Assembly: GCA_963693365.1 (NCBI GenBank)
Contig: CAVNZM010000007.1
Span: forward strand, 2,093,979 to 2,157,978
DNA length: 64,000 bases
Source: Amoebidium appalachense
Lineage: Eukaryota; Protista; Ichthyosporea
Reading direction: 5' to 3'
The position numbers were made by a program, and so were the translations under genes. Shown here piece by piece: positions 6,763 through 64,000 of the stretch. Each line of letters opens with the position of its first letter. Position 1 is the first letter of the stretch. The notes below the pieces were generated by a model. That model had not been told where the DNA came from. It worked only from the letters and a program-made list of their open reading frames with translations, and searched no databases.

Positions 6763-7341
6763 TCGAAAGAAGACTGACGGAGATAGGAGCACGCACCAGC
6801 AAGGAAGCCTGAACCAGGGCTGCTGTTTGGAAAAATAGGGAAAATATGGTGGTTGTTTTCAAAGGTCTATGCTTAGTGCGGCGCAAGTAATATTAGATCT
6901 TCGATCGAACGTCAATGTACATAATGATCTACCGTAAATGCGTCATAAGATCACAGTGTGTGCGTACCACGCCTCGCCGCCTGTGGCGCCTCCAAGAGCA
7001 ATGATGAATTATTCTAATCATGTGACGGTCTTTCCCCCCCCATATTTTAGGTGCACGTGTAGTCTCCCTATAGGCTTTGACAATGTACCCATGGCGCCAC
7101 TTGCTTACCGTGTGGCCGGGCCTTAGTAAGTAATAAAAGGTATGCTAAAAAAGTGGCCGCAGGGAGCACTAAATGTGGCTACAATGTCCACGTGCCGAAG
7201 TTACGAAACACCGACGTCATACACTTAGGCCCTTAGCCTATCTCATTCAGAGGCCGCCCCACATGCCATACGGTAACTTGTCTGTGCACATGCATGAAGT
7301 TAAACTTCAGAATCTCTAAGTTACTTCATGGCGGCGGCCCA

Positions 7342-29310: not shown

Positions 29311-48843
<19,533 letters not shown>

Positions 48844-49573
48844 GATGTCATGTTCTTAAACAAGTGTGTGGTTCAGAACCACAGACAGGCACAGCAATGT
48901 GGTCTTGGATGGACTCTCTGAAAGCCGGGTACGTTTCGTTCGGGCCTGTATCCCCAGCCACTTATACAGCAAAGTACACCACTCAAATCTTCGCTTGGGT
49001 GGTTGGCGCTGGATGAGAAAATGCGGGCAAAAACATTGGAGCTCAGCGGGCCAGCCTATATATAAAGGGAGCAGAAAAAAGTGCATGAAAATGAAAGGAG
49101 TTCGCTGTGGTGCCACTTTCCGAACGCTACACCCAGTTATAAAAATCACCAAAAGAGCAAGTTTTTGGTTGTCATCCAACTCACACTCACTAGAACACAC
49201 ATCTCAAGTGCCTGGTTGCCTCCTCTCCTAGAGCCTTATCTATACAACAACACTTGCTACTATTCCCCAGAAGTTGGGTGACTCTTTGACACAGCCTGTG
49301 TTCGGTGCTTGTTTCCACCACAAACGCAACGTCGCTTACCGTAGGCAATGCAAATCAGAAGTGTTTGTGCTGACGACACCAGGCCAGGGCTCGAAACTCA
49401 GAAATGCAGTTTCGGAATTCCTGAACTTTTTTGAACAGCCTCGGAAGCGGTTGTCCATCCTACGGTACTGTAAGCGATCCTCCTCTCCCCACCCCCCTCC
49501 ATCCCCCCTACAATGGATCCCTCCCCTCTTTTGATTTGTGCGTACCCACCCACAAGTCCCAGCTCAGCTTCGA

Positions 49574-49611
<38 letters not shown>

Positions 49612-50051
49612 CCCGCCGCCCCCCCCCCCCTCCTCCCCCTCCGTCGAGGCGAGGCCCTCCCCTTAGGCCTCGGGGCCAGGATTTCCCGAAAGTTTTGTGC
49701 AATGCCATGCAATTCCGAGAATCGAGCCCTGGGAGTACCTTGCATTTTAGACACCAAACTGCTTTTCGATTGCTTTATGGCCGGTCTGATGATGAGAGGC
49801 AGCACCCGGCCGCCGTCCCCGCAGGCCCCCACTGGGCCGCAAATAAATCACATGTACTGACTCCCGGCCCTGGGGCCTACACACGAGATCAATACAGATA
49901 AGGCCCTCGGGCCCGAAAACAGAAATCATCCCCCCCCCCCCCCCCCCCCTAAACCAAGCACTACTACCCTCAACCTACTTACAGCCCTGATCCATAAAGC
50001 TGAGAACAGCAGGCAAACAGCGAGGAAACAGAATGCGGGCGGGTGGGTGGG

Positions 50052-50207
50052 TCCTAAGAGAAGCGGCGAGGAAAAGACTGTTTGAGAGAAGCGAAAAACA
50101 TGACTTTTATAGTCGCTTCTACAGGAAGAGATGTGTGATGCCGATCATCACACCATCTGTTTTCTTCCGATTGGTGGATAAAATGAGTATTTACCAAATA
50201 TATCATT
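50052..50207. repeat. Repeat A2 of the RT unit
   Basis: Direct repeat of 52565-52716. Confidence 0.95.
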
Positions 50208-50294
50208 TTAGACACCAAACTGCTATCTACGTCCACTAAGACTCAGCAGGCTAACATGAACTATTATACATTTACGCTGGCTGGCTGGGGCCCC

Positions 50295-52232
50295 TCAGCC
50301 TGCCCAGGAACTGGGGGTGCCGTCCAGACGAAATGCTTGCATACGCCACGGCCGCACCCCGCGCGGGAAAATCACCTCAGAGGGGCGCAGAGGCACACTT
50401 GCCGAAGCCAACCCCTGAATGACGGGCCACCACGACGCCGTATCCCACACTGGAACGACGAGGATGCCCGCTGCACCTTCCCGCTGCAGCTTGGCCACCG
50501 TTCGCTTGATCAGCGGGAACGGAGGCGCCCACCAGCTTGGTGCCGTCCACGGCACCGCCAACCCGTCTGCCATCCCACCGGGGGCCCCTGCCTGGGCCCA
50601 CACATTAAACTCGGCCTTCACTGCCGAGGTGTGGGTGGCAAACCGATCGACTTCGGGCTGCATGCCCAGCAGCCACTCCACCCGCTCGACTGCCTCCGGC
50701 GTGACTTGCCATTCATGCCGGGGGTCCACCCGCGACAGCCAATCTGCTCGGTCGTTGAGCTCACCTGGGATGTAGGCCACCTCCTGTGGCCAAGGCAACC
50801 CGTGGTCGAGGCACAACTGCAGAAGCTGCCACAGAATGCGCTGCATCGAGGGGCTGCCGCTGCCCTTTTTCCGCACGGCCCCAAGGGCCGCCTGGGCATC
50901 GGCTTGCCACTGCACCCGCTGCCCACGGAGGGCTTCCTGCAGGGCAGGGCTCTGATAGGCCTCCAACAGGCCCTCACACTCCGCAATCGCCGCCGCCCGC
51001 GGAGCGTCGTCGGCTGCCCACCTGCCCGCCGCCTCAAGCGCAGGGGCAGGGGATCCCGCCACTTGAAGCACGGCCCCCCAGCCGTGTGTGGTGGCGGCAT
51101 CCGTGATGAGCGTAGCCGTGACCGGGTTGGGCCATATCTCCGCCCGAGGCAACCGGCCAATGAACTGGGGCGTCCGACCGATAATCCGTAACTGACGCCC
51201 CGAAAGCCGAACGAAACTGCGCCAATTTCCCCCGCGTAGGGCGGCATACACTGGCCGCACCAACGTCAGCACGTGGGGAGTGGCAGCCCGCAGACTCATG
51301 ACCACCCCCAACCACCGGGCGACTTGCTTCTTTTCCACCCATCGCTTGCCCTTGCGAGCCTTGGCCATCACCCGCTTGGTCTCCTCCACCAGCTTCTCCA
51401 TAGAGGTGGCGGTAGGGGCCAACACACCCGCGGCAAGGTCGACATGGATGCCTAGATGGTCGAGATGGTCGGTGGGTTCCCACTGGCCCTTCTCCGTATT
51501 TCGGCTCAGGCCCGTTGCCTCGAGCTCCCCCTCAACAACACCGCGAGTTTGCAGCGCCTTTAGCGGCCGTTCGACGACCAACCAGTCGTCCAAGAACGCT
51601 AACGTGCGCACACCGCGCCGATGAAGACGCCGACCGAACTCCTTCATGAGCCGCGTGAAGTAGTATGGGCTGAGGGAATAGCCGAAAGGCAGCACAGTGT
51701 ACTGATACAGCTGGCCGCCAACCCGAATCTGAAAATATTTACGCCACCGTGGCGCAATTGCCAGCGCAAAGTAGCCGTCCTCCAGGTCGAAACTGAAGCC
51801 GTGGTCACCTGGCTGAGCAATGACCTGCAGGTCACTGAGCGTCTCGTACTTGAGGCCCCGCTGTACGGCATACTCATTCACTGGGCGCATGTCGATTATC
51901 AGCCGCACTTTACCGTTTGGTTTCCGCACCCCAAACGTGGTCGACACGCAATGCTTCCTGGACTCGTCGATGGGTTCAAGTGCGCCCTTACCCACTAAAC
52001 GCGCAACTTCCACCAACGCCTCCTCCTCCGAAACTTCGCCCAAGTCTAGGTACCTCCCCATGTCGTGGGGAGGTGGCGGCCCGGCGCACCATTCGGGTGT
52101 GATGCCATACTTAATCCAGAAGAGCACGTCCTTGGCTGCTCCCCCGTGCGCCCACTCATCGTGGCACGCCCGCACCCGTTGATAGAGCGGTGCAGGTGCT
52201 ACCCCGCCCACTGGCTTACTGGGAGCACACAT
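50295..52232 (-). CDS. DIRS-type reverse transcriptase - RNase H - methyltransferase-like (MT) polyprotein, intact ORF
   Basis: RT: RLIIDMRPVN, FDLEDGYF, VLPFGYSLSPYYF, FLDD, HLGI. RNase H: ITDAATTHGWGAV, YIPGELNDRADWLSR. MT: VDRFAT, DGLAVPW, WAPPFPLI, LVVPVW..WWP. First ATG at 52232; the ORF track starts at GTG 52250. Confidence 0.93.
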   Translation of the reverse strand: MCAPSKPVGGVAPAPLYQRVRACHDEWAHGGAAKDVLFWIKYGITPEWCAGPPPPHDMGRYLDLGEVSEEEALVEVARLVGKGALEPIDESRKHCVSTTFGVRKPNGKVRLIIDMRPVNEYAVQRGLKYETLSDLQVIAQPGDHGFSFDLEDGYFALAIAPRWRKYFQIRVGGQLYQYTVLPFGYSLSPYYFTRLMKEFGRRLHRRGVRTLAFLDDWLVVERPLKALQTRGVVEGELEATGLSRNTEKGQWEPTDHLDHLGIHVDLAAGVLAPTATSMEKLVEETKRVMAKARKGKRWVEKKQVARWLGVVMSLRAATPHVLTLVRPVYAALRGGNWRSFVRLSGRQLRIIGRTPQFIGRLPRAEIWPNPVTATLITDAATTHGWGAVLQVAGSPAPALEAAGRWAADDAPRAAAIAECEGLLEAYQSPALQEALRGQRVQWQADAQAALGAVRKKGSGSPSMQRILWQLLQLCLDHGLPWPQEVAYIPGELNDRADWLSRVDPRHEWQVTPEAVERVEWLLGMQPEVDRFATHTSAVKAEFNVWAQAGAPGGMADGLAVPWTAPSWWAPPFPLIKRTVAKLQREGAAGILVVPVWDTASWWPVIQGLASASVPLRPSEVIFPRGVRPWRMQAFRLDGTPSSWAG

Positions 52233-52564
52233 AACCGGCCGCCCCCGCACAGACCACTGCTGCCGGGGCCCACACTAGGACTAGAGAGCAGCACACGTTG
52301 CTGCTGTACATGCTCACGCGAGCAGCCCACACGGGCTAACGTTGCCAGACGTGCCTAGGTGCTTATAGCTACACAAACAACCCCAAAACACAACCCCACT
52401 TGTGTTTTGCAAAAACTCATGAGCGCATCCGGTCTCAATGATCTGCGGTTCCTGGGCCTATTATTATAGCTAAAGTCTAGGGACCTACACGACTGACTAT
52501 AGCGCTCACTGCGCTCAAAAGCTTTGGTCTTGGTCACTAGACCGGCCTCACTAACGCGCGCTTC

Positions 52565-52716
52565 TCCTAAGAGAAGCGGCGAGGAAAAGACTGTTTGAGA
52601 GAAGCGAAAAACATGACTTTTATAGTCGCTTCTACAGGAAGAGATGTGTGATGCCGATCATCACACCATCTTCTTCCGATTGGTGGATAAAATGAGTATT
52701 TACCAAATATATCATT
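52565..52716 (-). promoter_or_regulatory. Repeat A1 of the RT unit, with a putative promoter facing the RT ORF
   Basis: Direct repeat of A2. On the minus strand, CCAAT (ccaatcgg) precedes a tgtgatg/catcaca hairpin and TATAAAAG. Promoter function is inferred. Confidence 0.6.
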
Positions 52717-52763
52717 CCTAGAGATAACAATTTAGATGTATGGTTGCTTTCGATTGCTTTATG

Positions 52764-53688
52764 TGTTGTAATACGTAGTATTTACATATGGTAAGATCTT
52801 CTCAGTTTGTGTTATGTTTCAGTTCATATGCTTAGTGTAAATGCCACACTCCTATTATGTAAAGTGTAGCATCGATCTCCGATATGCTTGTATACTTGTA
52901 ATCGTGTTGTATCGGCTTTAATCGTGTATTGTAATATCGATTAGAATATTTATATGTGTGTACACGGATCCACCCACTCAGGGAGAGATGTGTACATGTT
53001 CGTGTGTACATAAATATCTCTGGTTATAGTTATGCTATTACTATCTTGTTTGTTGATCTGTGCTCTCTTTTCCTTCCTCTTTCTCCTTCCTTATTTTCTT
53101 TTCTTTCTCTCCTTGTCTTCATGTGTATAATCGTATTTCTTTTCTACTAATATATGTTAGGTAGATTTGTGTTACTTAATACGTGTTCATTGGACGGTAA
53201 CACACTTAGGCTACACTTAGAATAGCATGTGTGTTTAGACTTCATTAATTCACTTTAGTTTTCATGTGTTGCCGGGCTTTAACCAATCATCAAGGTTAAG
53301 TGTGATATGTCTGAGTCTTTGCAGTATGTCATAGGTTAGAACTTCCTTGATGATGACACGAGTTGATCCTAACTAGTGTCTGTGTCCTATCGTGTACGCC
53401 TCCGCGTACCGGATCTCTCTGAAAGCAATTGGTTCTTAGTGATTGGTTTCTATTAGAGATGGATCTGATTTCCGACTGGTCGGAAATCATGTATGGATTG
53501 GACTTAGAGGAATTTCAGGTATTTATTCGAAGATCAGAATAAATTCAGTTGAGTCGTGTCTAAACATTGATGTCTGTTGTGTACACTGCTCCGATCGTTC
53601 CGTGTTTTGTTGTTGTGTGTGTCTGTGGTGTTTTCACACTGCACCACTGTGTCTCTGCTTACATCCCAAATACTTATAGAAATTAACA
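52764..53688 (+). repeat. Copia 5' LTR
   Basis: tgttgtaatac...aattaaca, repeated at 58604-59528. Confidence 0.96.
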
Positions 53689-53750
53689 GGTTATGCAGCC
53701 CTTTTGTACGCTCCCTACACACATCTAGAACTCGCGCTCGTTTTTCAATC

Positions 53751-56700
53751 ATGGATCCAAACAAAACTGGCGTAAACAAAATCACCATGTGGAAAGGTGA
53801 AGGGAAGACTGGTCCCTATAGCAAAACTACCTATTTTCAATGGGAAATCATTTTTCTCGGCATGATGACCGGCACTAAAGGTGTCCGACTCGTGGATGTT
53901 GTCCTTGCTGACAACTACGTCCCCCCTACCACCGTCGCGGTTGACGGTGAACCCCCCTTCTATGGCTACGGCACTACCGCGGAACTCAAAGAGGCCCGCA
54001 ATTGCCTCCTGCTCCATATGATACAGAACATCGACCCTTCCGTCCTCACCACCGTTGCCCAGTACCGTATTGGCATGGACCCTGAACGGGCCATGTGGAA
54101 ATTCCGTCAACACTATCTCCAAGGCAAACCCGATCAGATCCGCATCCTTCACCGTCAGTGGGATGCCTGTGCCCTTCAGCCCGGTGAATCATTCACCACC
54201 TACCTGAGCCGTCTGCAGACCATCGTGAACCAGCTCCAGTCTCTCCAAGATGAGTCCATTCACTTCACTCGTCTAGCTGAGAAGTTCTTCAATGAACTCA
54301 CCACCAGAGACGACCTCACCCCTGAGTTCAATCGTCTTATCGAAGACTATCACTTCGGTGATAAGCTATTCCCCGACTTCGAGTCCCTCCATAACCACGT
54401 CAAGGGCATCGAGTTACGTCAAGACCTCAAGATGCAACTCCGGAACAACCGTGCCCACCGTGCCTCCAAGTCCAGCATGGCATTAAATGCCAGTGCTCCC
54501 CCCCGTGATCTTCCTCGCCGTGACTTACGCACCCGACTTGACCGTACCTCTGGCACGGACCTCCGAACTCGTCTCTCCCGTCAGCACACCCGATCCCGTT
54601 CCCCCCACCGGCCTGCCTTCCGGTCCACGTCTCGTTCCCCCAGTCGTTCCCGTTTCTCGGGTTCCCGTCGTTCTGATTCCCCGGCTCGTTCTAACACCCC
54701 GTCCGTGAAAGAATGCTCCTACTGCCACGAGCCTGATCACACGATCATCGATTGCCCTGAGCCGAAATGCCGTATGTCCAGACACAACCGTTCCCGTCAA
54801 GGCAGTGAGAAATCTGTCTCCTTTGCTTTCTCGGCATACAATGCTAGCTCCGTCCCCGTGTCCTCCGACCCTGCCTGGGATTCCGGGTGCAACATGACTG
54901 TTTGCCCCACCCGTGAGTTCTTCCATGACCTCACTCCCCTTCCGACACCGACTCCCGTTGCTGCCTTCAATGGCACCCCCGTCTTGGCCACTCACACCGG
55001 CCATATCGTCATCAACACCACCACCGACCATGGCACTACCACCCTAACCATTGAAGCCTACTACACCCCGTTAGGCCAAGCCTTCCTCATTTCAACATCC
55101 CAAGCTGCTGCCGAATACATCAAGGGTGATTTGAACGATGCCTCCACTCCGTCATTCCTCTTCGACCGACTCACCGGCCGTCATCTCGTCAACCTCCGTC
55201 TACACAACGGTCTGTATTACTTCAAGGACTACACCATTCAACCACCCACTCGTCCTGTGGCTCTGGCTGCCACTACCAGTGTTAACCCATCCATCTGGCA
55301 CCATCGTCTGGGGCACCGAGCTATGACCAGCATCAAGGACATGGTGAAACACGACCTTGTTATTGGTCTCCCCTCCTCTGTCCTCGACTGTGATGTTCCT
55401 GATTGTCATGGCTGCATTATGGGTAAGACCACCAAGGCTCCGTTCAGGGGTGACCGTCCTCACTCCAACATCCCCGGTCATGAATGGCATTGGGATTTTT
55501 TTGAGCCTACCACAACATCGTACGGAGGTTCCAAGGTTGCTCTCGTCACTGTCTGCCGTGCCTCTGGCCTCGTCAAGATCTACCCGATGGCCGACCGTAC
55601 CACCACCCTGGATATTCTCACAGCTCACACCAACCTCGTTGCCACCCATGCCCCCTCCAAAGTTGGTGTTTACCACTTCGACTCCGGCTCTGAGTTCACC
55701 TCCAAGGATACCCGTGCTTTTTGCCTCTCCCAGGGCATCAAGGCCAGCTATGCTCCGGTGGACTGCCCTCAACTGAACGGCTATGTTGAACGACGTATGC
55801 GGTTCCTCCAAGAGATTGTCCGTTGCCTCCTCCATCAAGTCCAAGATCAGTCTCTGTCTCCCAAACTGTGGGCTGAGGCCCTCCAACATGCCGCCTACAT
55901 CATCAACGTCACCCCGTCCACGACTGCCAATGGTCGTACACCATTCGAGGTTTTCTACGGTGTCAAGCCCGACATCTCCGAGCTCAAAGTGTTCGGTTGC
56001 CCTGCCTACACTCACGTGCCAGCCTCTAAACGGAACAAGCTGGCCCCCACCGTCAAACTCGGCATGTATATCGGCTATGATCTTCAATCACACTGCCACC
56101 GGATCTTCAATGCCACCACCCATCGTGTCGGCCTCTTCCGTGATGTGATTTTCGACGAATCAGCTTATCTCCCGTCCGACATTCCATCAACCCTTCCGAC
56201 CCCCGACACCACTGCTACCTCGACCACCCCACCCCCCACAGTTGACACTGAAGATGATGTTTGTCTGGTGTACTCTGGCCCCCCTCCTGCCATCGTCGTT
56301 CCCCCGACACCCCCCCCCCCACCGGCCCCCCTGCCCCCGTGCCCGTCCAGCCTGCCGACCCTCATCCTGGCCCTGGCAACGTCACACCCATCCGACCCGG
56401 CTCCCCCGACAACTTCCACTCGGCCCCGTCCAGCCCGGATGTTGCCCCCCCTGCACTTCCGAACTTCCAAGTTCCCCCCCCCACCGTCTCCACCTACCCC
56501 GGTTCCTGCACCCCGTCGTTCTGCCCGTCTCCAGGGCAAGGTTGGACTTCAAGCCACCACCACCCTGCCAGTCCCCCCCGGTCCCCCCATCAACATCGAC
56601 CAACTACCCAAACTTGTCCGTCAACTCTGTTCCGGACCCAATGGTGATCAGGTCAAGTCAGCCCTGACTGCTGAGTATCAAGCCTTCGTCGACAAAGACA

Positions 56701-58160
56701 TCTTTGAACTTGTTGACCCTCCCCCTGGTGCTAACATCGTCGGCTTCAAGTGGATTGTCTCCGAGAAAACTCTCAACTCGGCTGGTGACACCAAGATCAA
56801 GGCACGTGGTGTTGCTCAAGGCTTCAGTCAGCAATACGGTGTTGACTATGAGTTGATTGAGAGCCCTGTCATCCGTCCGGCTGCTCTCCGTGCCATCCTA
56901 GCTCTGGCCGTTGTTGAAGGTCATGACATACATCAACTCGACGTGTCTACGGCCTTTCTCAACAGCCCACTCACCGAGACCATCTACATGAAACAACCCC
57001 CGGGATTCATCACCATGGCCACACTTGGCAAGGTCTGGAGACTCAAGAAAGCCCTGTACGGCCTCAAGCAAGCCTCCAAGGCTTGGTACGACTTCCTCGA
57101 CGGCATTCTTCTTGCCCATGGCCTGACCCGTACTAAGACCGACCCGTGCATCTACCTCCGGTTCTTCCCCAACAACGATGTGGTACGGGCTGGTAACTAC
57201 GTCGATGACTCCACCATCACCAACACCCGGGGTTCTACTGCTGCCAGTGACCTGGCTGCCCACATCAGCAAGATGGCCAGCTGTCGTATGAGTCCATTTG
57301 ACCGTATGCTCGGTGTTGATTTTAATCACTCTGATCCCCATCACCTCCACATGCACCAGAGGTCTTACATCATGGATATCATCCACGACTTCAACCTCAC
57401 CGATGCCAAGTCCAAGTCTACCCCCATCCCTGCAGGCACCACCGTCTCCCTGGCTGATTGCCCCCCCCAACCGTTCACCGTGCCCTACCGTGAGTTACTC
57501 GGCCGTCTCCTCTGGGTGGCACGGTGCACACGTCCCGACATTGCCTATGCCATCGGCTTCCTTGGTCGGTTCAGCACCAACCCCGGCAAGACTCACTGGG
57601 ACCTTCTCCGTCGTGTGGCCCGGTACCTGCTCGGCACCATTGACCTTGGCATTGACTACAAGTACTCGGCCACCCAGTCCCCCATACTCGAATGCTACAC
57701 GGATGCTGACTTTGCTGGTTGTGCCGACAGCAAGAAGTCTACCACCGGCTACATTATCGTGTTTGCTGGTATGCCCGTCATCTGGTACTCCAAGCTCCAG
57801 CCCATCACGGCCACCAGCACCACTGAAGCTGAGCTGATTGCTCTCAATGCTGGCACCCAAGAAGTTGCTTGGGTCCGTGACCTCTTCAAGGAACTCGGCT
57901 GTCCCATGCTTGCTCCGACTCCGGTGTACTGTGACAACCAGTCGACCATTGCCATCGTCAACTCCACCGGCATCAAGCACCGTACCAAACACATTGCCGT
58001 CCGGTATCACAACACCAAGGACTACATTGCCAGTGGGGACGTGGTTGTCCACTACGTTGAGTCAGCCCACAACTTAGCTGACATACTCACCAAACCCCTC
58101 CCCGGCCCGAGTCATGTCCACCATCGTGCTCGACTTTGTTTACCGGATATTGTGGATTGA
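53751..58160 (+). CDS. Copia gag-pol polyprotein (1469 aa from ATG 53751), intact
   Basis: Zinc knuckle CSYCHEPDHTIIDC; protease WDSGC; WHHRLGH..CHGC; integrase HWDF/FDSGSEF/NGYVERRMR; RT LKKALYGLKQA and YVDD; RNase H YTDADFAG and ADILTKPL. Order is PR-IN-RT-RH. Confidence 0.97.
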   Translation: MDPNKTGVNKITMWKGEGKTGPYSKTTYFQWEIIFLGMMTGTKGVRLVDVVLADNYVPPTTVAVDGEPPFYGYGTTAELKEARNCLLLHMIQNIDPSVLTTVAQYRIGMDPERAMWKFRQHYLQGKPDQIRILHRQWDACALQPGESFTTYLSRLQTIVNQLQSLQDESIHFTRLAEKFFNELTTRDDLTPEFNRLIEDYHFGDKLFPDFESLHNHVKGIELRQDLKMQLRNNRAHRASKSSMALNASAPPRDLPRRDLRTRLDRTSGTDLRTRLSRQHTRSRSPHRPAFRSTSRSPSRSRFSGSRRSDSPARSNTPSVKECSYCHEPDHTIIDCPEPKCRMSRHNRSRQGSEKSVSFAFSAYNASSVPVSSDPAWDSGCNMTVCPTREFFHDLTPLPTPTPVAAFNGTPVLATHTGHIVINTTTDHGTTTLTIEAYYTPLGQAFLISTSQAAAEYIKGDLNDASTPSFLFDRLTGRHLVNLRLHNGLYYFKDYTIQPPTRPVALAATTSVNPSIWHHRLGHRAMTSIKDMVKHDLVIGLPSSVLDCDVPDCHGCIMGKTTKAPFRGDRPHSNIPGHEWHWDFFEPTTTSYGGSKVALVTVCRASGLVKIYPMADRTTTLDILTAHTNLVATHAPSKVGVYHFDSGSEFTSKDTRAFCLSQGIKASYAPVDCPQLNGYVERRMRFLQEIVRCLLHQVQDQSLSPKLWAEALQHAAYIINVTPSTTANGRTPFEVFYGVKPDISELKVFGCPAYTHVPASKRNKLAPTVKLGMYIGYDLQSHCHRIFNATTHRVGLFRDVIFDESAYLPSDIPSTLPTPDTTATSTTPPPTVDTEDDVCLVYSGPPPAIVVPPTPPPPPAPLPPCPSSLPTLILALATSHPSDPAPPTTSTRPRPARMLPPLHFRTSKFPPPPSPPTPVPAPRRSARLQGKVGLQATTTLPVPPGPPINIDQLPKLVRQLCSGPNGDQVKSALTAEYQAFVDKDIFELVDPPPGANIVGFKWIVSEKTLNSAGDTKIKARGVAQGFSQQYGVDYELIESPVIRPAALRAILALAVVEGHDIHQLDVSTAFLNSPLTETIYMKQPPGFITMATLGKVWRLKKALYGLKQASKAWYDFLDGILLAHGLTRTKTDPCIYLRFFPNNDVVRAGNYVDDSTITNTRGSTAASDLAAHISKMASCRMSPFDRMLGVDFNHSDPHHLHMHQRSYIMDIIHDFNLTDAKSKSTPIPAGTTVSLADCPPQPFTVPYRELLGRLLWVARCTRPDIAYAIGFLGRFSTNPGKTHWDLLRRVARYLLGTIDLGIDYKYSATQSPILECYTDADFAGCADSKKSTTGYIIVFAGMPVIWYSKLQPITATSTTEAELIALNAGTQEVAWVRDLFKELGCPMLAPTPVYCDNQSTIAIVNSTGIKHRTKHIAVRYHNTKDYIASGDVVVHYVESAHNLADILTKPLPGPSHVHHRARLCLPDIVD

Positions 58161-58437
58161 CCCGACCTACTTCAAGAGTGATTTTCTCATGTGTACTACT
58201 TACTTTATCAACATCATTATATCATATGTATTGCCTTTGTGGGTATGCCCACTTAGGGTTTATATATAAGGTTTGACCTGTACCATCACTCTACTCTATC
58301 TTTCACTGGTTTAAAACCCAGTTAATCAAACACCGCCTATACACGTTATATATATTCGTTGTTTTTGCCCCGGTTCCTTCCCCCCCCCCTCCCCCCCCCC
58401 CCCCTTCCCCCCCCCCCCCTTCCCCCCCCCCCCCCTC

Positions 58438-58469
<32 letters not shown>

Positions 58470-58603
58470 TTCTCCCCCCCCCCCCCCCCCCCGGGAAAAG
58501 TACACACTTTAATTTTTTTTTTTCCGTTTCTGTTCTCAAGTGGGGAGATTTCACTAGTTCAGTGGGGATATGATAACACAAACTTCAAAGTCTTAAGTGG
58601 GGA

Positions 58604-59528
58604 TGTTGTAATACGTAGTATTTACATATGGTAAGATCTTCTCAGTTTGTGTTATGTTTCAGTTCATATGCTTAGTGTAAATGCCACACTCCTATTATGT
58701 AAAGTGTAGCATCGATCTCCGATATGCTTGTATACTTGTAATCGTGTTGTATCGGCTTTAATCGTGTATTGTAATATCGATTAGAATATTTATATGTGTG
58801 TACACGGATCCACCCACTCAGGGAGAGATGTGTACATGTTCGTGTGTACATAAATATCTCTGGTTATAGTTATGCTATTACTATCTTGTTTGTTGATCTG
58901 TGCTCTCTTTTCCTTCCTCTTTCTCCTTCCTTATTTTCTTTTCTTTCTCTCCTTGTCTTCATGTGTATAATCGTATTTCTTTTCTACTAATATATGTTAG
59001 GTAGATTTGTGTTACTTAATACGTGTTCATTGGACGGTAACACACTTAGGCTACACTTAGAATAGCATGTGTGTTTAGACTTCATTAATTCACTTTAGTT
59101 TTCATGTGTTGCCGGGCTTTAACCAATCATCAAGGTTAAGTGTGATATGTCTGAGTCTTTGCAGTATGTCATAGGTTAGAACTTCCTTGATGATGACACG
59201 AGTTGATCCTAACTAGTGTCTGTGTCCTATCGTGTACGCCTCCGCGTACCGGATCTCTCTGAAAGCAATTGGTTCTTAGTGATTGGTTTCTATTAGAGAT
59301 GGATCTGATTTCCGACTGGTCGGAAATCATGTATGGATTGGACTTAGAGGAATTTCAGGTATTTATTCGAAGATCAGAATAAATTCAGTTGAGTCGTGTC
59401 TAAACATTGATGTCTGTTGTGTACACTGCTCCGATCGTTCCGTGTTTTGTTGTTGTGTGTGTCTGTGGTGTTTTCACACTGCACCACTGTGTCTCTGCTT
59501 ACATCCCAAATACTTATAGAAATTAACA
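58604..59528 (+). repeat. Copia 3' LTR
   Basis: Direct repeat of the 5' LTR, preceded by a PPT and followed by the TSD. Confidence 0.96.
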
Positions 59529-59787
59529 TTATGAGCTCGGGTCAGGCTGTGATCCCATCAGAGATCGTCGACAACACTTACATACAGCTACACACGTCAC
59601 TTACTATAGTATCAGGCTTACCACAACCTCGTTCTCATATTCTTACCAAAACCTCACTCCCTCACCCACCACCCGTGCGCAGGGGGGCATGCGTGTGTGC
59701 GTGTATGTGCGTGTATATGTGTGTTTTGTGTGTGTATGTGTGTGTGCGGGTGTGTGCGGGTGTGTGAGTGCACGTGTGTTGTGTGTG

Positions 59788-59820
<33 letters not shown>

Positions 59821-60174
59821 ATGTGTGTGTGTTGTGTTGTGGGGACGTGCGCATAAAGCTCGGAAGTTGTGCATGCAATTGTTGGGATGCAACCCTAGAG
59901 CTCGGGCGGGTGGGTGGGTGAATTAGTGGGTGCGATGTTGGGAAATGAGCTAACGACGTAGGAGTTCGCTCCTTATATACCAACGGACTCACTCAATGGG
60001 CTATCATTGTTAGAAACACCATTTCAACCAATGATTGCCCTAGAATACACTCTAAATAGTGCTTGATGGATTTAAGCTAAGTATTTAGATGTATGGTTGC
60101 TACCTGCGTCCACTGCTGCCTTCATGATCAGACAAGTACTAGTATTGCGCCGTTACAAGCTTATTAGAGATCCT

Positions 60175-61099
60175 TTACACAATCAACTGCAAACAAGCTG
60201 TATGTTGGTGGCCGGTGCCGTAGGTGGTTGGCTTCGCGCCAAGCCAGGTGCCGAGCCAATCAATTTGCTGGTCAGAGACCCCCGCAGCCTTGGCCGCGCC
60301 GAACATGCCATGACGGAGGCAGTGGAAGGTGACGGCGTTGGCTAACAGGGGCTCCACGCCGATAGCGCACAACTCGCGCTGCATCCACTCGGTCTGGTGG
60401 TTGACGTTACCGGTGGGGAGGATGCAGTGGGGGGCGTCGGGGGGACGGGGAGTGGCAGGCACTGCTGCCTGTAGGGCCGGGACACAGATGGTGGGCACCA
60501 CTCGCGTGCGCACGACGGGGTCACGCAACTTGCCCGCGCCTTGCTTGATTTTCCGCAGCCGTAGAGTGATGCGGTGGCCTTGTGGGTACGGGCCTTCAAA
60601 ACCACGTGTTCTGCGAGCAGTTCGGTTACCGTGGTCCACCGCAGGCCCCAGAGGTAGGCCAACAGGAGCACTCCCAGGCGCCGCTGTGTGTTGGCGGTGG
60701 TCTGGGGCTGGTGGGTCAGGATGAGGGACACCCATTCGGCATCGAACCGCCGCGGGTCGGCCAGCTTGTCGGGGTTACGCTGCATATGGGTGCGGGTGTA
60801 CCCCTGGGTGAGGGCGGACATGACCGATGGGGGAGGGTATGGGAGCCCCCAAAGTTCGTGTACCTTGCGCAGGGCAGAGAGCTTGCCGACCACCGTGCCC
60901 GGCGCGTAATTTCGCTCCATCAACTTGGCCACAAACGCAGTGGCAACCGTGCCGGTGAGGGGCCAAGGGGCGAAGGCGGACTCTTGACAAAACTGAAGGT
61001 AAAACCGAATTTTCATCTGGTAGCGCTCCCAGGTGGTGGCGGCAAGTGGCCTTAGGGTGTTGCTGATCAAAACATCCACATTTGCCCTGAGGGTTGGGG
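60175..61099 (-). pseudogene. DIRS-type tyrosine recombinase; one frameshift near 60600 and N-terminus cut by the Gypsy LTR
   Basis: SAM-like N-domain (TWERYQ..FC..WP..AFVAKL..APGTVVGKLSALR). Catalytic residues R (WGLR), K (RKIK), HCLR, LGTW and Y (TTYG). The two frames join if one T is added in the T4 run at 60598-60601. The frame is open up to the LTR edge at 61099. Confidence 0.88.
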
Positions 61100-61714
61100 T
61101 GTTGTATAATATGATCGTGTGTCTGTGACAAACAATATGTTTATAAATGAACGGGGTTGACTAGACCACGCTTTGCTTAGTTACGTGCTAGTCCTACTTA
61201 CACCTAGTAAGCCGAGCACACTGAGTGAGCTCTGAAGCCCCCAACATGCCCTTATATCGGAGCTCGCACAGCGGCTCAGACATGCGCATCGGTATGTGCT
61301 TTTTTGGCTACGAGCCAATCACATACGGTTCACGGTCCTGTCCCATGGCTAACACGGTTCCAATAAACTTAGTGAGCCAATCGGGTGACAGTACTTGACT
61401 ATCGATGCATTCCACAGTCATACCTCACGGCTACTTGCATATTTTCCCATGATAAAACTATAACTTAACGCTCATGGTTCCTCTGCTACGTGTCGGTCCC
61501 ATGTGACTATTATATCTGTTTTCCCATGAATAATTCTGCAAGCTGCACGTGCACATATGTTTAACTTCTTGCTCATGCGCACAAGACTGGGGGGAGACAT
61601 GCATACTGGCCTACCTAAGATCAAACACAGTGGTATATATACATGTACACGTGTGCGTATATCTCAACCTGTGTACATCCATACTAGATATCCGGTATAA
61701 TATAGTATACCACA
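61100..61714 (-). repeat. Gypsy 3' LTR (615 bp)
   Basis: Terminal inverted ends tgttgtata / tataccaca; PPT-like ggtggggcg (minus strand) at 61715-61723. The partner LTR is outside the window. Confidence 0.75.
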
Positions 61715-61754
61715 CGCCCCACCGTAAAAAGAAGTATGTCGTCCTCGACATACG

Positions 61755-64000
61755 TCACCATGCTCCACACAATGAGTCAATGTATCCGTGGAACGATGCA
61801 AGGTCACCTCTGCGTTGGTGGAACTCTCGGATCTTGTCCGGGCAGGCTAAGTCTTTCTCACACTCCCAAGAGGTGAATGAATCATCTTTGCCTGCCCACT
61901 TGATCTGGTACCACTTGTAAGGGGTGGATTGCTTGCGCCGTTTCTGAATTCTTACGTCAAGCACCTTTTCCACCACCCACTCGTCCGGCAGAACCTTGTT
62001 GAAGTTGTGACTATCGCCCGTGTCCGGGAGGTGAGAGAGATCTTGAGGCCGAATTCTATTTTGCTCACTCAATTCAAGCTGAATATCGTCCACGTGCCAC
62101 TTAGATTTCTTCATAGTTGCGAAGCTTCGGATCTCGTACGTGACCGGGCCGACCCTTTTGACGATTTCTTAACCCGTAATCCACCGTACATCCCAGGCAC
62201 CGATATTTTTGGCTTGATTCCGAACACGTATCCGTGCACCCTTCTTAAATTCACGAGCCACCGAGGGGCCTGGGCGCTCTCGTACGGCACGTTGCTGGAC
62301 CACAGCACGGAGCAGAGGCAGACGGGCTAATAACTCTCGCCGGTATGCCTTCCACTCTGGGTCCTTGAGTGCCGGGTGGTTACTGCTAAGAAGGGCAACG
62401 TCAGGGAATTGTGTTGCTTCTTGCCCGTACACAAGATAATACGGTGTACATTGCAAAATTTTGTGTGTTGTTGTGTTGTATGCATGTGTAACCACCGGCA
62501 ACAGAGTGTCCCAATTAGTGTGCTCATAATTAACGTACTTTGAGAGTGCATTATTAATAAATCTATGAGACCGTTCATTGGAACCGTTGCTTTGTGGGTG
62601 ATATGCAGAGGTGCTCACTTGTGCAATATTTGCTATACGGCAAATCTCAATAATTAGCTCATTGAGAAATTCTGATCCTTGATCACTCAAGAGTGTACGA
62701 GGGGGGCCGTGTATATAGCAAATTACATTCATGAGTGCATGTGCAACATTAACGGCATGCTTAGATTGGATGGGCACAGTGATTAAATACTTCGTTGCCA
62801 TATCCATAAACACACAAATGAAAGTATTACCATTTTTCGTTTCTGTGAACGGACCCATAAGGTCAACAGAAACACGAGAGAACATTTTTAAATTTTCGTA
62901 TCTCTGTTCAAATGGCCTACTTCTCAAGTGTGGGTTATCGTTACGGCCTTGGCACTGTGTGCAGGCATTCACATAAGCAGTGATATCTTTGTGCATGCGT
63001 GGCCAATAATAATTGTATAATCTTTCGTAAGTTCGTTCAATGCCAGTATGAGCCCCCCCGTCGTGCACACTTCTTAATAAATCAGCACGAAGGATTTCGA
63101 GCACATACAGGCAACGACGACCATCCTTAGCCACATGATAAAGCACGTCATCCTCTATCACACACATTTGTGCTATTTTCTTAACCTTTTTGTATCCGAA
63201 ATACTCAAGATTAAGACCGTGTGCAGCTCGTTCCCCCCTGCCTGCCATTTTCGTTTGGCCTCGGAATCGAGGGAGGCAAGCCACCGTAGCCACGTGATTA
63301 TATCCTTACACATTTTGTCCCCCCCTGTGCCATCATAATTGCTTCCTTCTGATAGCCGGCACCACCGAGTGCAGAAAGGGAGGGCAGGCCGGCTTGACTG
63401 AGTGCAGAAATTTGTGCACATTTCAAGCGGTCTGGATCGAAAATGTGTGTGAATTCGAGTGCATCACCCCAATCAACAAACACTTCGGCTGGTTTCGAGC
63501 TAAGCTCGGATAAATCTGCTGTGAGAACCTCTTGTAATTCCTTTTTCACATCCCACCTTTCCAGTGGTATGTTTTCGTTCTCATGCAGAATATATCCTAT
63601 ACGGCTTAAGCCATCAGCATCGTGCATGGTAGGGCCAGGACGGTAGTATAGATCGAAATCATACTCCTGCATTTCCAAAGCCCACCGTTGCATCCGTTCG
63701 TTTGCTATCCGTTTGACACCTTTAAGAGAAAGACAGGGCTTATGGTCACTTTCCACAATAGTATTCACTCGACCATACACGTACACCCTAAACTCTTTCA
63801 GTGCCCAATAGATTGCATGCGTTTCTCGTTCGATGTTGCTCCACCTACGTTCGGTAGGTTGAAACATCCGGGAGGCATATGCCACCGTGCGGAACTTGCC
63901 ATCTTTTTGTTTTTGATACAGGCAAGCCCCTTCCGAGAACCGACTAGCATCACAACGAATAAGAAACTGACCCCCCGTGGGGGAAAGATCGGGCAGGGCA
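61755..64000 (-). pseudogene. Gypsy pol (RNaseH-integrase-chromodomain), disrupted
   Basis: Frame breaks around 63200-63325 and an in-frame TAA at 62169-62171 (..RWITG*EIVKRVGPVTYEI..). Confidence 0.85.

Follow-up and report, generated by a model that had tools for sequence, protein, structure and literature searches.

A multi-copy, pol-only PAT-like family in Amoebidium appalachense and its probable partnership with a neighbouring recombinase-bearing family

A stretch of 64,000 nt from the ichthyosporean Amoebidium appalachense (assembly GCA_963693365.1, contig CAVNZM010000007.1; hereafter the window) carries two elements in the same orientation which lie 13 nt apart, as the first-pass annotation had reported. 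The left-hand element, unit 1, is best explained as a copy of a multi-copy PAT-like family that encodes pol alone, and was likely inserted by the recombinase, probably together with the Gag, of the family to which its neighbour, unit 2, belongs, the two families having end signals in common; we give this reading a probability of about 0.72. The unit 1 family would thus probably be semi-autonomous and mobilised by the family of unit 2. The coordinates of all features are collected in Table 1.

Table 1. Features of the two units and of the elements inserted into unit 2 (positions in the window; repeats named in coding sense).
Feature	Position	Strand	Remarks
Unit 1, pol-only split-direct-repeat element	49744..52716	-	A1-ORF-B1-A2-spacer-B2 in coding sense; ATT at both ends
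Unit 1 B2	49744..49763	-	20 nt including ATT core; identical to B1
Unit 1 R1, shared 16-mer	49764..49779	+	last 8 nt complementary to cataaagc
Unit 1 cataaagct	49993..50001	+	predicted to pair with R1 and close the spacer
Unit 1 G-rich 17-mer	50036..50052	+	four GGG runs, directly before A2; coding strand C-rich
Unit 1 internal junction copy A2/B1	50053..50224	-	ATT core 50205-50207; three predicted hairpins
Unit 1 R2	50225..50237	+	adjoins B1; 11/13 nt common to both units
Unit 1 ORF, RT - RNase H - adenine-methylase-like	50295..52232	-	intact, 645 aa
Unit 1 5' leader	52233..52565	-	~330 nt; stops in all three frames
Unit 1 A1	52566..52716	-	one 4-nt indel relative to A2
Stretch between units 1 and 2	52717..52729	.	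13 nt, likely host target DNA
Unit 2 B2 and R1	52730..52763	-	B2 19 nt including ATT core
Copia LTR retrotransposon, complete	52764..59528	+	in unit 2 spacer, not part of the system; identical 925-nt LTRs, TTATG duplication
Unit 2 cataaagct and G-rich 17-mer	59852..59919	+	cataaagct 59852-59860; 17-mer 59903-59919
Unit 2 A2/B1 junction copy and R2	59920..60114	-	ATT 60083-60085; R2 60102-60114
Unit 2 tyrosine recombinase gene	60175..61099	-	5' end removed by Gypsy; motifs LRW, HCLR, W, Y present
Gypsy LTR retrotransposon, 3' part	61100..64000	-	inserted in recombinase 5' region; RNase H, integrase

Unit 1 has the split direct repeats A1-B1-A2-B2, the RT-RNase H with methylase-like domain and the trinucleotide core of a PAT-like element, but neither a recombinase beside the RT in the same element nor a gag-like ORF before it. 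The ATT core lies at 49744, 50205 and 52714 with no longer target duplication, and the left boundary is also marked by loose ends of public contigs at 49743/49744. In place of the long inverted terminal repeats plus ICR of DIRS1-like elements there are direct repeats, the sole inverted feature being an imperfect arm of ~14 nt at the junction. The ORF gave a single Pfam match, to RVT_1 (E 2e-16), with none to Dam, and covers positions 2-614 of a 625-position profile built from 51 control DIRS pol genes (E 4e-125); its methylase-like tail is unlike the Ngaro and VIPER groups, which are defined by having no methylase domain. No gag was found in unit 1, whose leader is closed throughout, and no recombinase or remnant of one, only 58 nt lying between the ORF stop and R2. 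The same arrangement is seen in public contigs, which span RT, leader and A1 at family depth (X5, 51581-52594; X15, a run only guessed to be RNA, 52428-52670) and are contiguous from the stop to R2 (X4, 50178-50289; X5, 50230-50351). A joint in X15 leading from A1 to A2/B1 was not taken as a circle, since the assembly may have been joined there across the repeat. Amongst the control DIRS loci, a recombinase lies downstream in 55 of the 58 with a full RT and 600 nt or more of downstream sequence, and a long open frame precedes the RT in 51 of 53; two controls that have lost the recombinase (L003 and L028) keep a remnant of it, whereas unit 1 keeps none.

The first-pass annotation had held that its proposal would fall if unit 2 had its own gag and RT upstream and unit 1 were a single-copy deletion derivative of a full-length element. 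The second of these points fails: unit 1 is multi-copy, has several left flanks and, to judge from its variants, carries a gene that is under purifying selection. The first concerns sequence beyond the Gypsy. In the public runs its main contigs are ~9-19 times deeper than minor variants, a depth which is not a copy number (2367-2992 in X3, 174-244 in X4 and 290-449 in X5, against 156-269, 16-20 and ~20 respectively for contigs of minor variants or flanks). Four contigs in X3 and four in X5 exit the window at the B2 end, and their flanks agree with one another at only 0.53-0.55. The loose ends listed, besides which there were 117 more, include no right-end flanks of unit 1, and the varied flanks are those of the left end only. 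Silent changes account for 14 of the 23 unit 1 coding variants among those listed, compared with 25% expected (p 3e-4), and there are no stops; the 23 rows, with 40 others lying outside them, were pooled from four runs and possibly include a sister RT subfamily. If such a family moves in the manner of DIRS elements, it would have to obtain its recombinase in trans. Loose poly-A ends at 49916 were rejected as a tail, being on the wrong strand and likely low-complexity matches.

The sister subfamily is a match to P0002, a protein of A. parasiticum. It is plentiful in these runs, at a joint depth of 160 in X4 and 333 in X5, and has loose ends at 52089 and 52121. In a quick tree of 84 rows, with 5 loci left out, no named PAT references and the careful search unfinished, the unit 1 RT formed a long branch with P0002, loosely near L002, L040, L060 and L079 among other long branches. 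No relatives of the RT were found in viral contigs. Similarity to the control loci was uncorrelated between RT and recombinase (rho -0.11, 55 loci), the recombinase scores being near noise.

In unit 2, B1 and B2 enclose an A-like stretch and A1 falls outside the window; ATT cores lie at 52730 and 60083. A single frameshift near 60600 interrupts the recombinase gene of unit 2; the N-terminus fits the N-terminal profile of DIRS recombinases (E 1e-12), with only ~33 codons visible before the core of that domain. Word-based protein searches returned no relatives of the recombinase, a HMMER scan with the N-terminal piece gave 33 matches, at most 39% identical and none close, and a single-sequence fold of the piece (pLDDT 47) was unusable. 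Other Amoebidium recombinase genes are described as sitting in Plavaka-linked clusters (PMC11244446), a point against taking the unit 2 recombinase as the one that serves unit 1. The Copia insertion, with its boundaries and duplication, agrees with the earlier description, and unit 2-like ends without it exist among public contigs (loose ends behind 52763). As for gene content, it had been claimed that one unit encodes only RT-RH-MT and the visible part of the other only a recombinase; the former holds for unit 1, whilst a recombinase-only content of unit 2 cannot be read from the window.

The five motifs which the first-pass annotation placed in both units were recovered, to within one base. 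TTTAGA-N8-TGCT, the B core, occurs four times in the window (49746, 50207, 52731 and 60084) against 0.02 expected, and R1, cataaagct, the G-rich 17-mer and R2 twice each, once per unit. The longest exact words common to both units are of 16 and 17 nt, with words of at least 15 nt arising in 0 of 2000 shuffles. The distance from R2 to the ORF stop, given earlier as ~60 nt, is 58 nt in unit 1 and 61 nt in unit 2. The supposed lack of similarity outside the motifs stands for the A regions (308 of 500 shuffles as good) and the 3' UTRs (90/500), the spacers being borderline (18/500). B comprises only 19-20 nt including the ATT core, and cataaagc is the reverse complement of the R1 end. In both units a hairpin is predicted at the A/B junction, on either strand and with different sequence: the third predicted hairpin of unit 1 (50171-50218) spans it, as does one at 60045-60094 in unit 2, the junction copies giving z -5.0 and z -3.45 respectively as ssDNA.

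A similar G-rich tract and junction hairpin are found in ordinary DIRS/PAT elements (L002/L077, L060 and DIRS1-type loci), and because they occur in autonomous elements they are no proof of partnership; this leaves R1, R2, the B core and cataaagct as the only signals that point to a special pair. Neither R1 nor R2 marks the 81 control loci, R2 having 0 matches and R1 a single match with two mismatches in 373,572 bases, and the B core plus R1 pattern had 0 matches in metagenome contigs. Going by the shared end signals, the recombinase of the unit 2 family would probably act on unit 1. An R2-like word at 7152-7168 did not rise above background (72 of 242 tiles scored as well), and seven R2 matches in viral contigs, with no RT or recombinase nearby, were taken as chance. 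The idea of a hammerhead, formed by eye, was dropped, as the four weak Rfam matches all fell short of the gathering score and lay outside the repeats.

The anatomy, missing genes, flanks, silent excess and shared signals are observations; the cycle that may connect them is modelled on that of DIRS-1. A transcript starting from A1 would be copied by the RT into antisense single-stranded cDNA, with the predicted R1-cataaagc stem keeping the RNA 3' end close to A2. A strand jump to the internal A2/B1 copy, bracketed by the G-rich tract and R2, would restore the B/A junction, which is predicted to form a hairpin whose stem contains the ATT. By exchanging this ATT with one in host DNA, the recombinase would then insert the element so that each end carries ATT, without a longer target duplication.

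Two versions of this best explanation differ in what lay upstream in unit 2. It is a little short of an even bet that unit 2 was, before the Gypsy cut it, an ordinary PAT-like element with the autonomous set gag-RT-MT-YR, perhaps with the second RT subfamily as its own, and that unit 1 is an old semi-autonomous offshoot which kept its RT since an RT favours its own RNA. Such a layout is standard, as in control L002 (A1-gag-RT/RH/MT-YR-A2) and the relative L077, where B1, a G-rich tract and B2 lie behind the recombinase; the abundant P0002-like subfamily of the public runs could be the RT of unit 2, and partnerships of autonomous and semi-autonomous elements are known from wheat LTR elements (PMC9744471; PMC11302176). 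However, the semi-autonomous wheat partners described there keep gag, not pol, and the RT of DIRS-1 works in trans (PMC7192593), which weakens cis-preference as a reason for keeping one. The other version, which we regard as a tentative possibility of somewhat lower standing, is true segmentation: the unit 2 family would have no RT, being recombinase-only or gag plus recombinase, and the two mutually dependent families would form a multipartite retrotransposon whose pol segment and recombinase (or gag-recombinase) segment replicate and insert separately; the two segments would have RT signals in common and a hairpin attachment site each. A pol under apparent purifying selection with neither gag nor recombinase is most easily explained by such a need, both ORFs stop ~60 nt before R2, and unit 1 is without the remnant seen in recombinase-deleted controls; a weak hint comes from four consecutive EukProt entries of the sister RT transcript group, in which only RT appears and no gag entry intervenes. 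Against this, the 5' part of unit 2 is hidden behind the Gypsy, outside the window. The methylase-tail motif precedes the start of the recombinase profile by 107-134 nt in 47 of 50 control elements; unit 2 shows 98 nt, the Gypsy having cut it 10-35 nt short of the expected position of an upstream RT tail. From the cut, the frame that carries this tail in controls runs on for 10 codons and stops ~65 nt before the profile start, a position inside the range of 41 of the 55 controls; this is consistent with an upstream RT, although chance often gives the same. A split or RT-only DIRS system was not found in the literature searched, a coverage which mostly excluded subscription papers, Repbase reports and theses. 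One-way dependence, in which the unit 2 family has its own RT, is slightly favoured over mutual dependence because it has precedent.

That the units do not interact at all appears improbable. On that view the two would be cousin PAT-like families, their shared words would be general DIRS signals retained by descent, unit 1 would use some other recombinase, and the 13-nt spacing would mark either a target hot spot or a joint within one compound element. The generality of the G-rich tract and junction hairpin is in keeping with this, as are the A repeats, which cannot be aligned between units, and the loose ends listed, with none at the right end of unit 1; yet exact identity over 16 and 17 nt, together with four ordered motifs amid unalignable DNA, points to shared selection, R1 and R2 are not a feature of the control loci, and the varied left flanks show unit 1 ending at B2.

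A selected pol-only family is already unusual, in that the semi-autonomous wheat LTR partners reported in PMC9744471 and PMC11302176 keep gag. If the partner truly has no RT, a retrotransposon would have been split into mutually dependent genomes, offering a natural test of how multipartite genomes originate; it would resemble the segments of multipartite viruses, but within a eukaryotic chromosome. In either case, two families with unalignable repeats single out the key bases, namely the ATT-core hairpin, the G-rich tract, R1, R2 and one long-range stem, and these motifs make the primer, strand jump and recombinase substrate of split-repeat elements directly testable. Pipelines which demand RT and recombinase on one fragment would overlook such elements.

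Amongst known systems, the PAT-like elements PAT, Toc3 and kangaroo, of the order DIRS, are described with the same A1-B1-A2-B2 repeats, an RT-RNaseH-methylase pol, a trinucleotide core without a longer target duplication, and a recombinase of the DIRS type found in unit 2 (PMC4157794, PMC6681497, PMC3266345); NTT/ATT cores are given as the DIRS norm (PMC3266345). Unit 1 differs in having no gag or recombinase and being nevertheless a selected multi-copy family, in a B of only ~17 nt beyond the ATT core, and in that two families share short signals whilst their repeats cannot be aligned. DIRS-1 of Dictyostelium supplies the model of the cycle, with antisense single-stranded cDNA, a required internal junction copy and proteins acting in trans, but has inverted repeats plus an ICR and all three genes in one unit (PMC7192593); in control DIRS1-type loci, too, a C-rich tract follows the same kind of hairpin junction. 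The wheat LTR retrotransposons Wilma/Sabrina/WHAM and Cereba/Quinta are long-lived partners with only diagnostic motifs in common, the semi-autonomous member encoding one protein; they differ in belonging to the LTR/integrase class and, as reported, in that the dependent member keeps gag and the other is complete, whereas here the dependent member keeps pol (PMC9744471; PMC11302176). Split-repeat elements which persist with genes missing are known in the ORF1-deleted Ngaro 2b of Cafeteria (PMC8547959) and in SIRE, derived from VIPER (PMC6681497), but by these accounts Ngaro 2b lost gag only, SIRE codes for nothing and Ngaro/VIPER have no methylase. Finally, Cryptons, recombinase-only DNA transposons (PMC4157794), would match unit 2 in gene content if it is recombinase-only, but lack retro-type split repeats, whereas unit 2 has the retro-type B1-A2-B2 layout and signals in common with an RT element.

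Aligned with a 625-position profile derived from 51 control DIRS pol genes, the intact ORF of unit 1 (645 aa) covers positions 2-614. Its sole close homologue is an Amoebidium parasiticum protein (72% identical), so an Amoebidium-like ichthyosporean is the probable host. In the coding sense the unit reads A1, leader, ORF, 58 nt, R2, B1, A2, C-rich tract, spacer, R1 and B2; a single 4-nt indel distinguishes A1 from A2, B1 and B2 are identical, and ATT occurs at each end and at the internal junction, the usual DIRS core being NTT, mostly ATT (PMC3266345, in part). No gag was found in unit 1, the leader being closed by stops in all frames, nor any recombinase, for which the gap between ORF and R2 leaves no space. 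Folding in unit 1 is strongest (z -6 to -9) in a 150-nt stretch that takes in the A1/leader hairpin together with most of A1.

Features of the window and of the control loci (window positions unless a locus is named)
Feature	Position	Strand	Description
R2-like word	7152-7168	-	directly preceded by ATTTAG
Host gene	about 40000-48850	-	intron-rich, by eye; apparent start about 0.9 kb left of nested insertions
Inverted repeat	49384-49408, 49708-49732		25 nt, 84%; flanks poly-C tract; ends 11 nt left of unit 1
Unit 1	49744-52716	-	13 nt left of unit 2
Loose contig ends, second RT subfamily	52089-52121
Hairpin	52559-52578		small, perfect-looking; A1/leader boundary
Unit 2	from 52730		truncated by Gypsy at 61100
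Copia	52764-59528		complete, within unit 2; LTRs 925 nt, identical; TTATG duplication
Recombinase frameshift	near 60600		unit 2
C-rich tract	L077 2600-2900		PAT-type
C-rich tract	L060 4089-4610		PAT-type
Recombinase remnant	L003 3769-4340		DIRS1-type; inverted repeats and ICR retained
Recombinase remnant	L028 1867-2264		DIRS1-type
DIRS element	L001 1-4525		gag-RT-YR

A metagenome scan for DIRS-type RT gave 255 loci, of which the best 80 (24-35% identical) served as controls together with L001, giving 81. A recombinase lies downstream in 55 of the 58 with full RT and 600+ nt downstream, and a long open frame, of a kind that GC-rich DNA yields by chance, precedes RT in 51 of the 53 with 1000+ nt upstream; the layout of unit 1 is thus exceptional. 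Among the three without a full recombinase, L003 has lost most of the gene and keeps a remnant, L052 has a visible diverged start and L057 nothing, while L028, too short for this count, also retains a remnant of a mostly deleted recombinase. L001 and L018/L019 (protein P0003) are ordinary gag-RT-YR DIRS elements in bacterial metagenome bins labelled Propionicimonas and Lentisphaerae, likely through eukaryotic contamination.

Unit 1 is a multi-copy family. In the contig comparison (4 of the 24 listed runs), its main contigs have depths of 2367-2992, 174-244 and 290-449 in runs X3, X4 and X5, against 156-269, 16-20 and about 20 for minor-variant and flank contigs, a ratio of roughly 9-19, depth not being copy number. 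At the left (B2) end, four X3 and four X5 contigs exit the window into long, mutually dissimilar sequence. All listed flanks belong to this end, and copies of unit 1 may still often adjoin unit 2. Some contigs join RT, leader and A1 without a break and others join the stop codon, R2, B1 and A2, and therefore the pol-only form is the abundant one. Among the ORF variants listed, pooled from four runs and drawn from a table with 40 further rows, 14 of 23 are silent, against an expected 25% (p 3e-4) or 35% (p 0.01), and none creates a stop.

The five motifs that the first-pass annotation had reported as common to both units were all recovered at their positions; outside these motifs the A regions of the units align no better than shuffles (308/500 as good). 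The B core occurs four times in the window against 0.02 expected, and the two 3' regions have words of up to 16 and 17 nt in common, a length of at least 15 being reached in 0/2000 shuffles. Across 373,572 control bases R1 and the B core matched once each and R2 never; these three motifs are not general. The R1 end is complementary to cataaagc, and their pairing would close the spacer. In a tile test the R2-like word near the left of the window did not stand out from background, and it was rejected as a further R2.

The G-rich tract and junction hairpin, by comparison, are general, being found in control elements also. In the autonomous split-repeat element L002/L077 there is a junction hairpin as well as a G-rich tract with the same 12 end bases directly before A2, a G-rich tract is also present between the B copies of L060, and 8 of 11 hand-picked control junction stretches form a single long hairpin with a C-rich tract after it. 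This tract, G-rich on the cDNA strand, immediately follows the internal junction copy both in the PAT-type loci and in DIRS1-type L003, L013, L019, L025, L027, L030, L039 and L073, and may be a general DIRS signal; a literature search found no paper linking DIRS, tyrosine recombinase retrotransposons and G-quadruplexes. Three hairpins, unrelated in sequence between the units, are predicted at each A2|B1, with z of -5.0 (unit 1) and -3.45 (unit 2) as single-stranded antisense DNA and -2.4 and -1.9 as sense RNA; the third is predicted to span the junction, a short A arm pairing with ATT and B around a 20-25-nt extension.

Unit 2 shares the 3' anatomy of unit 1 but has its own A and B. The N-terminal piece of its recombinase fits the DIRS recombinase N-terminus profile (E 1e-12), and the C-terminal piece is collinear with the same family in a different frame, hence the frameshift; protein searches found no close homologue. 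The Copia within it, with identical LTRs and a single open frame of 1529 codons, is a very recent insertion; the stretch 3' of its 5' LTR does not start with TGG, as the usual primer site does. The inverted repeat beside unit 1 is possibly a small unrelated element. Contigs in X4 and X5 carry the B2/R1 end of unit 2 without Copia and with a slightly different spacer, so other copies or relatives exist.

We consider it likely (probability roughly 0.7) that unit 1 represents a PAT-like family that is pol-only, multi-copy and under selection and that depends on the unit 2 family. DIRS-1 cDNA is mostly linear, single-stranded and antisense; the internal junction copy is required, and the RT of DIRS-1 acts in trans, as its other proteins probably do (PMC7192593, in part). 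By analogy, RT would copy unit 1 RNA from B2 towards A1 and then jump to A2|B1, rebuilding the junction, and a recombinase, acting on either folded single-stranded or double-stranded DNA, would exchange the ATT core for an ATT of the host. Recombinase and Gag would come from elsewhere, the natural donor being the family with R1, R2 and the B core.

Whether that donor needs unit 1 in return is a closer matter. The first-pass annotation had proposed a segmented retrotransposon, a reading that is partly supported: unit 1 is pol-only and probably dependent, whereas mutual dependence of pol and recombinase units is rated below a partner with its own RT. The latter falls just short of an even chance, and true segmentation is somewhat less probable, the two being nearly equal. 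A methylase-tail motif was detected in 50 of 55 control loci, in 47 of these at a distance of 107-134 nt upstream of the point where the recombinase profile begins; in unit 2 only 98 nt are visible between Gypsy and that point, and the frame expected to hold the tail is open for 10 codons before a stop within the usual control range, so that an RT could still lie upstream. The runs that contain unit 1 also abound in another RT subfamily, which matches protein P0002 of A. parasiticum and could be the RT of unit 2.

No pol-only or segmented DIRS system was found in the literature searched, which left out most subscription papers, and the available parts of PMC12477816, PMC7245038 and PMC5890265 hold nothing on split systems. 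The Amoebidium genome paper (PMC11244446, in part) describes recombinase-rich Plavaka clusters, and the word 'DIRS' is absent from the main text and two supplements as available. Among eukaryotic Dam proteins, 46% were without detectable TE features and were read as remnants (2026 preprint 10.64898/2026.05.21.726589, in part). Like PAT, Ngaro and VIPER elements (PMC4157794, PMC6681497, both in part), unit 1 is ordered A1-B1-A2-B2, yet it differs from PAT in having neither gag nor a recombinase in the same unit. Precedents for partial elements are provided by wheat semi-autonomous LTR elements, which, unlike unit 1, retain gag (PMC9744471, PMC11302176, both in part), by Ngaro without gag (PMC8547959, in part) and by the non-coding SIRE (PMC6681497, in part).
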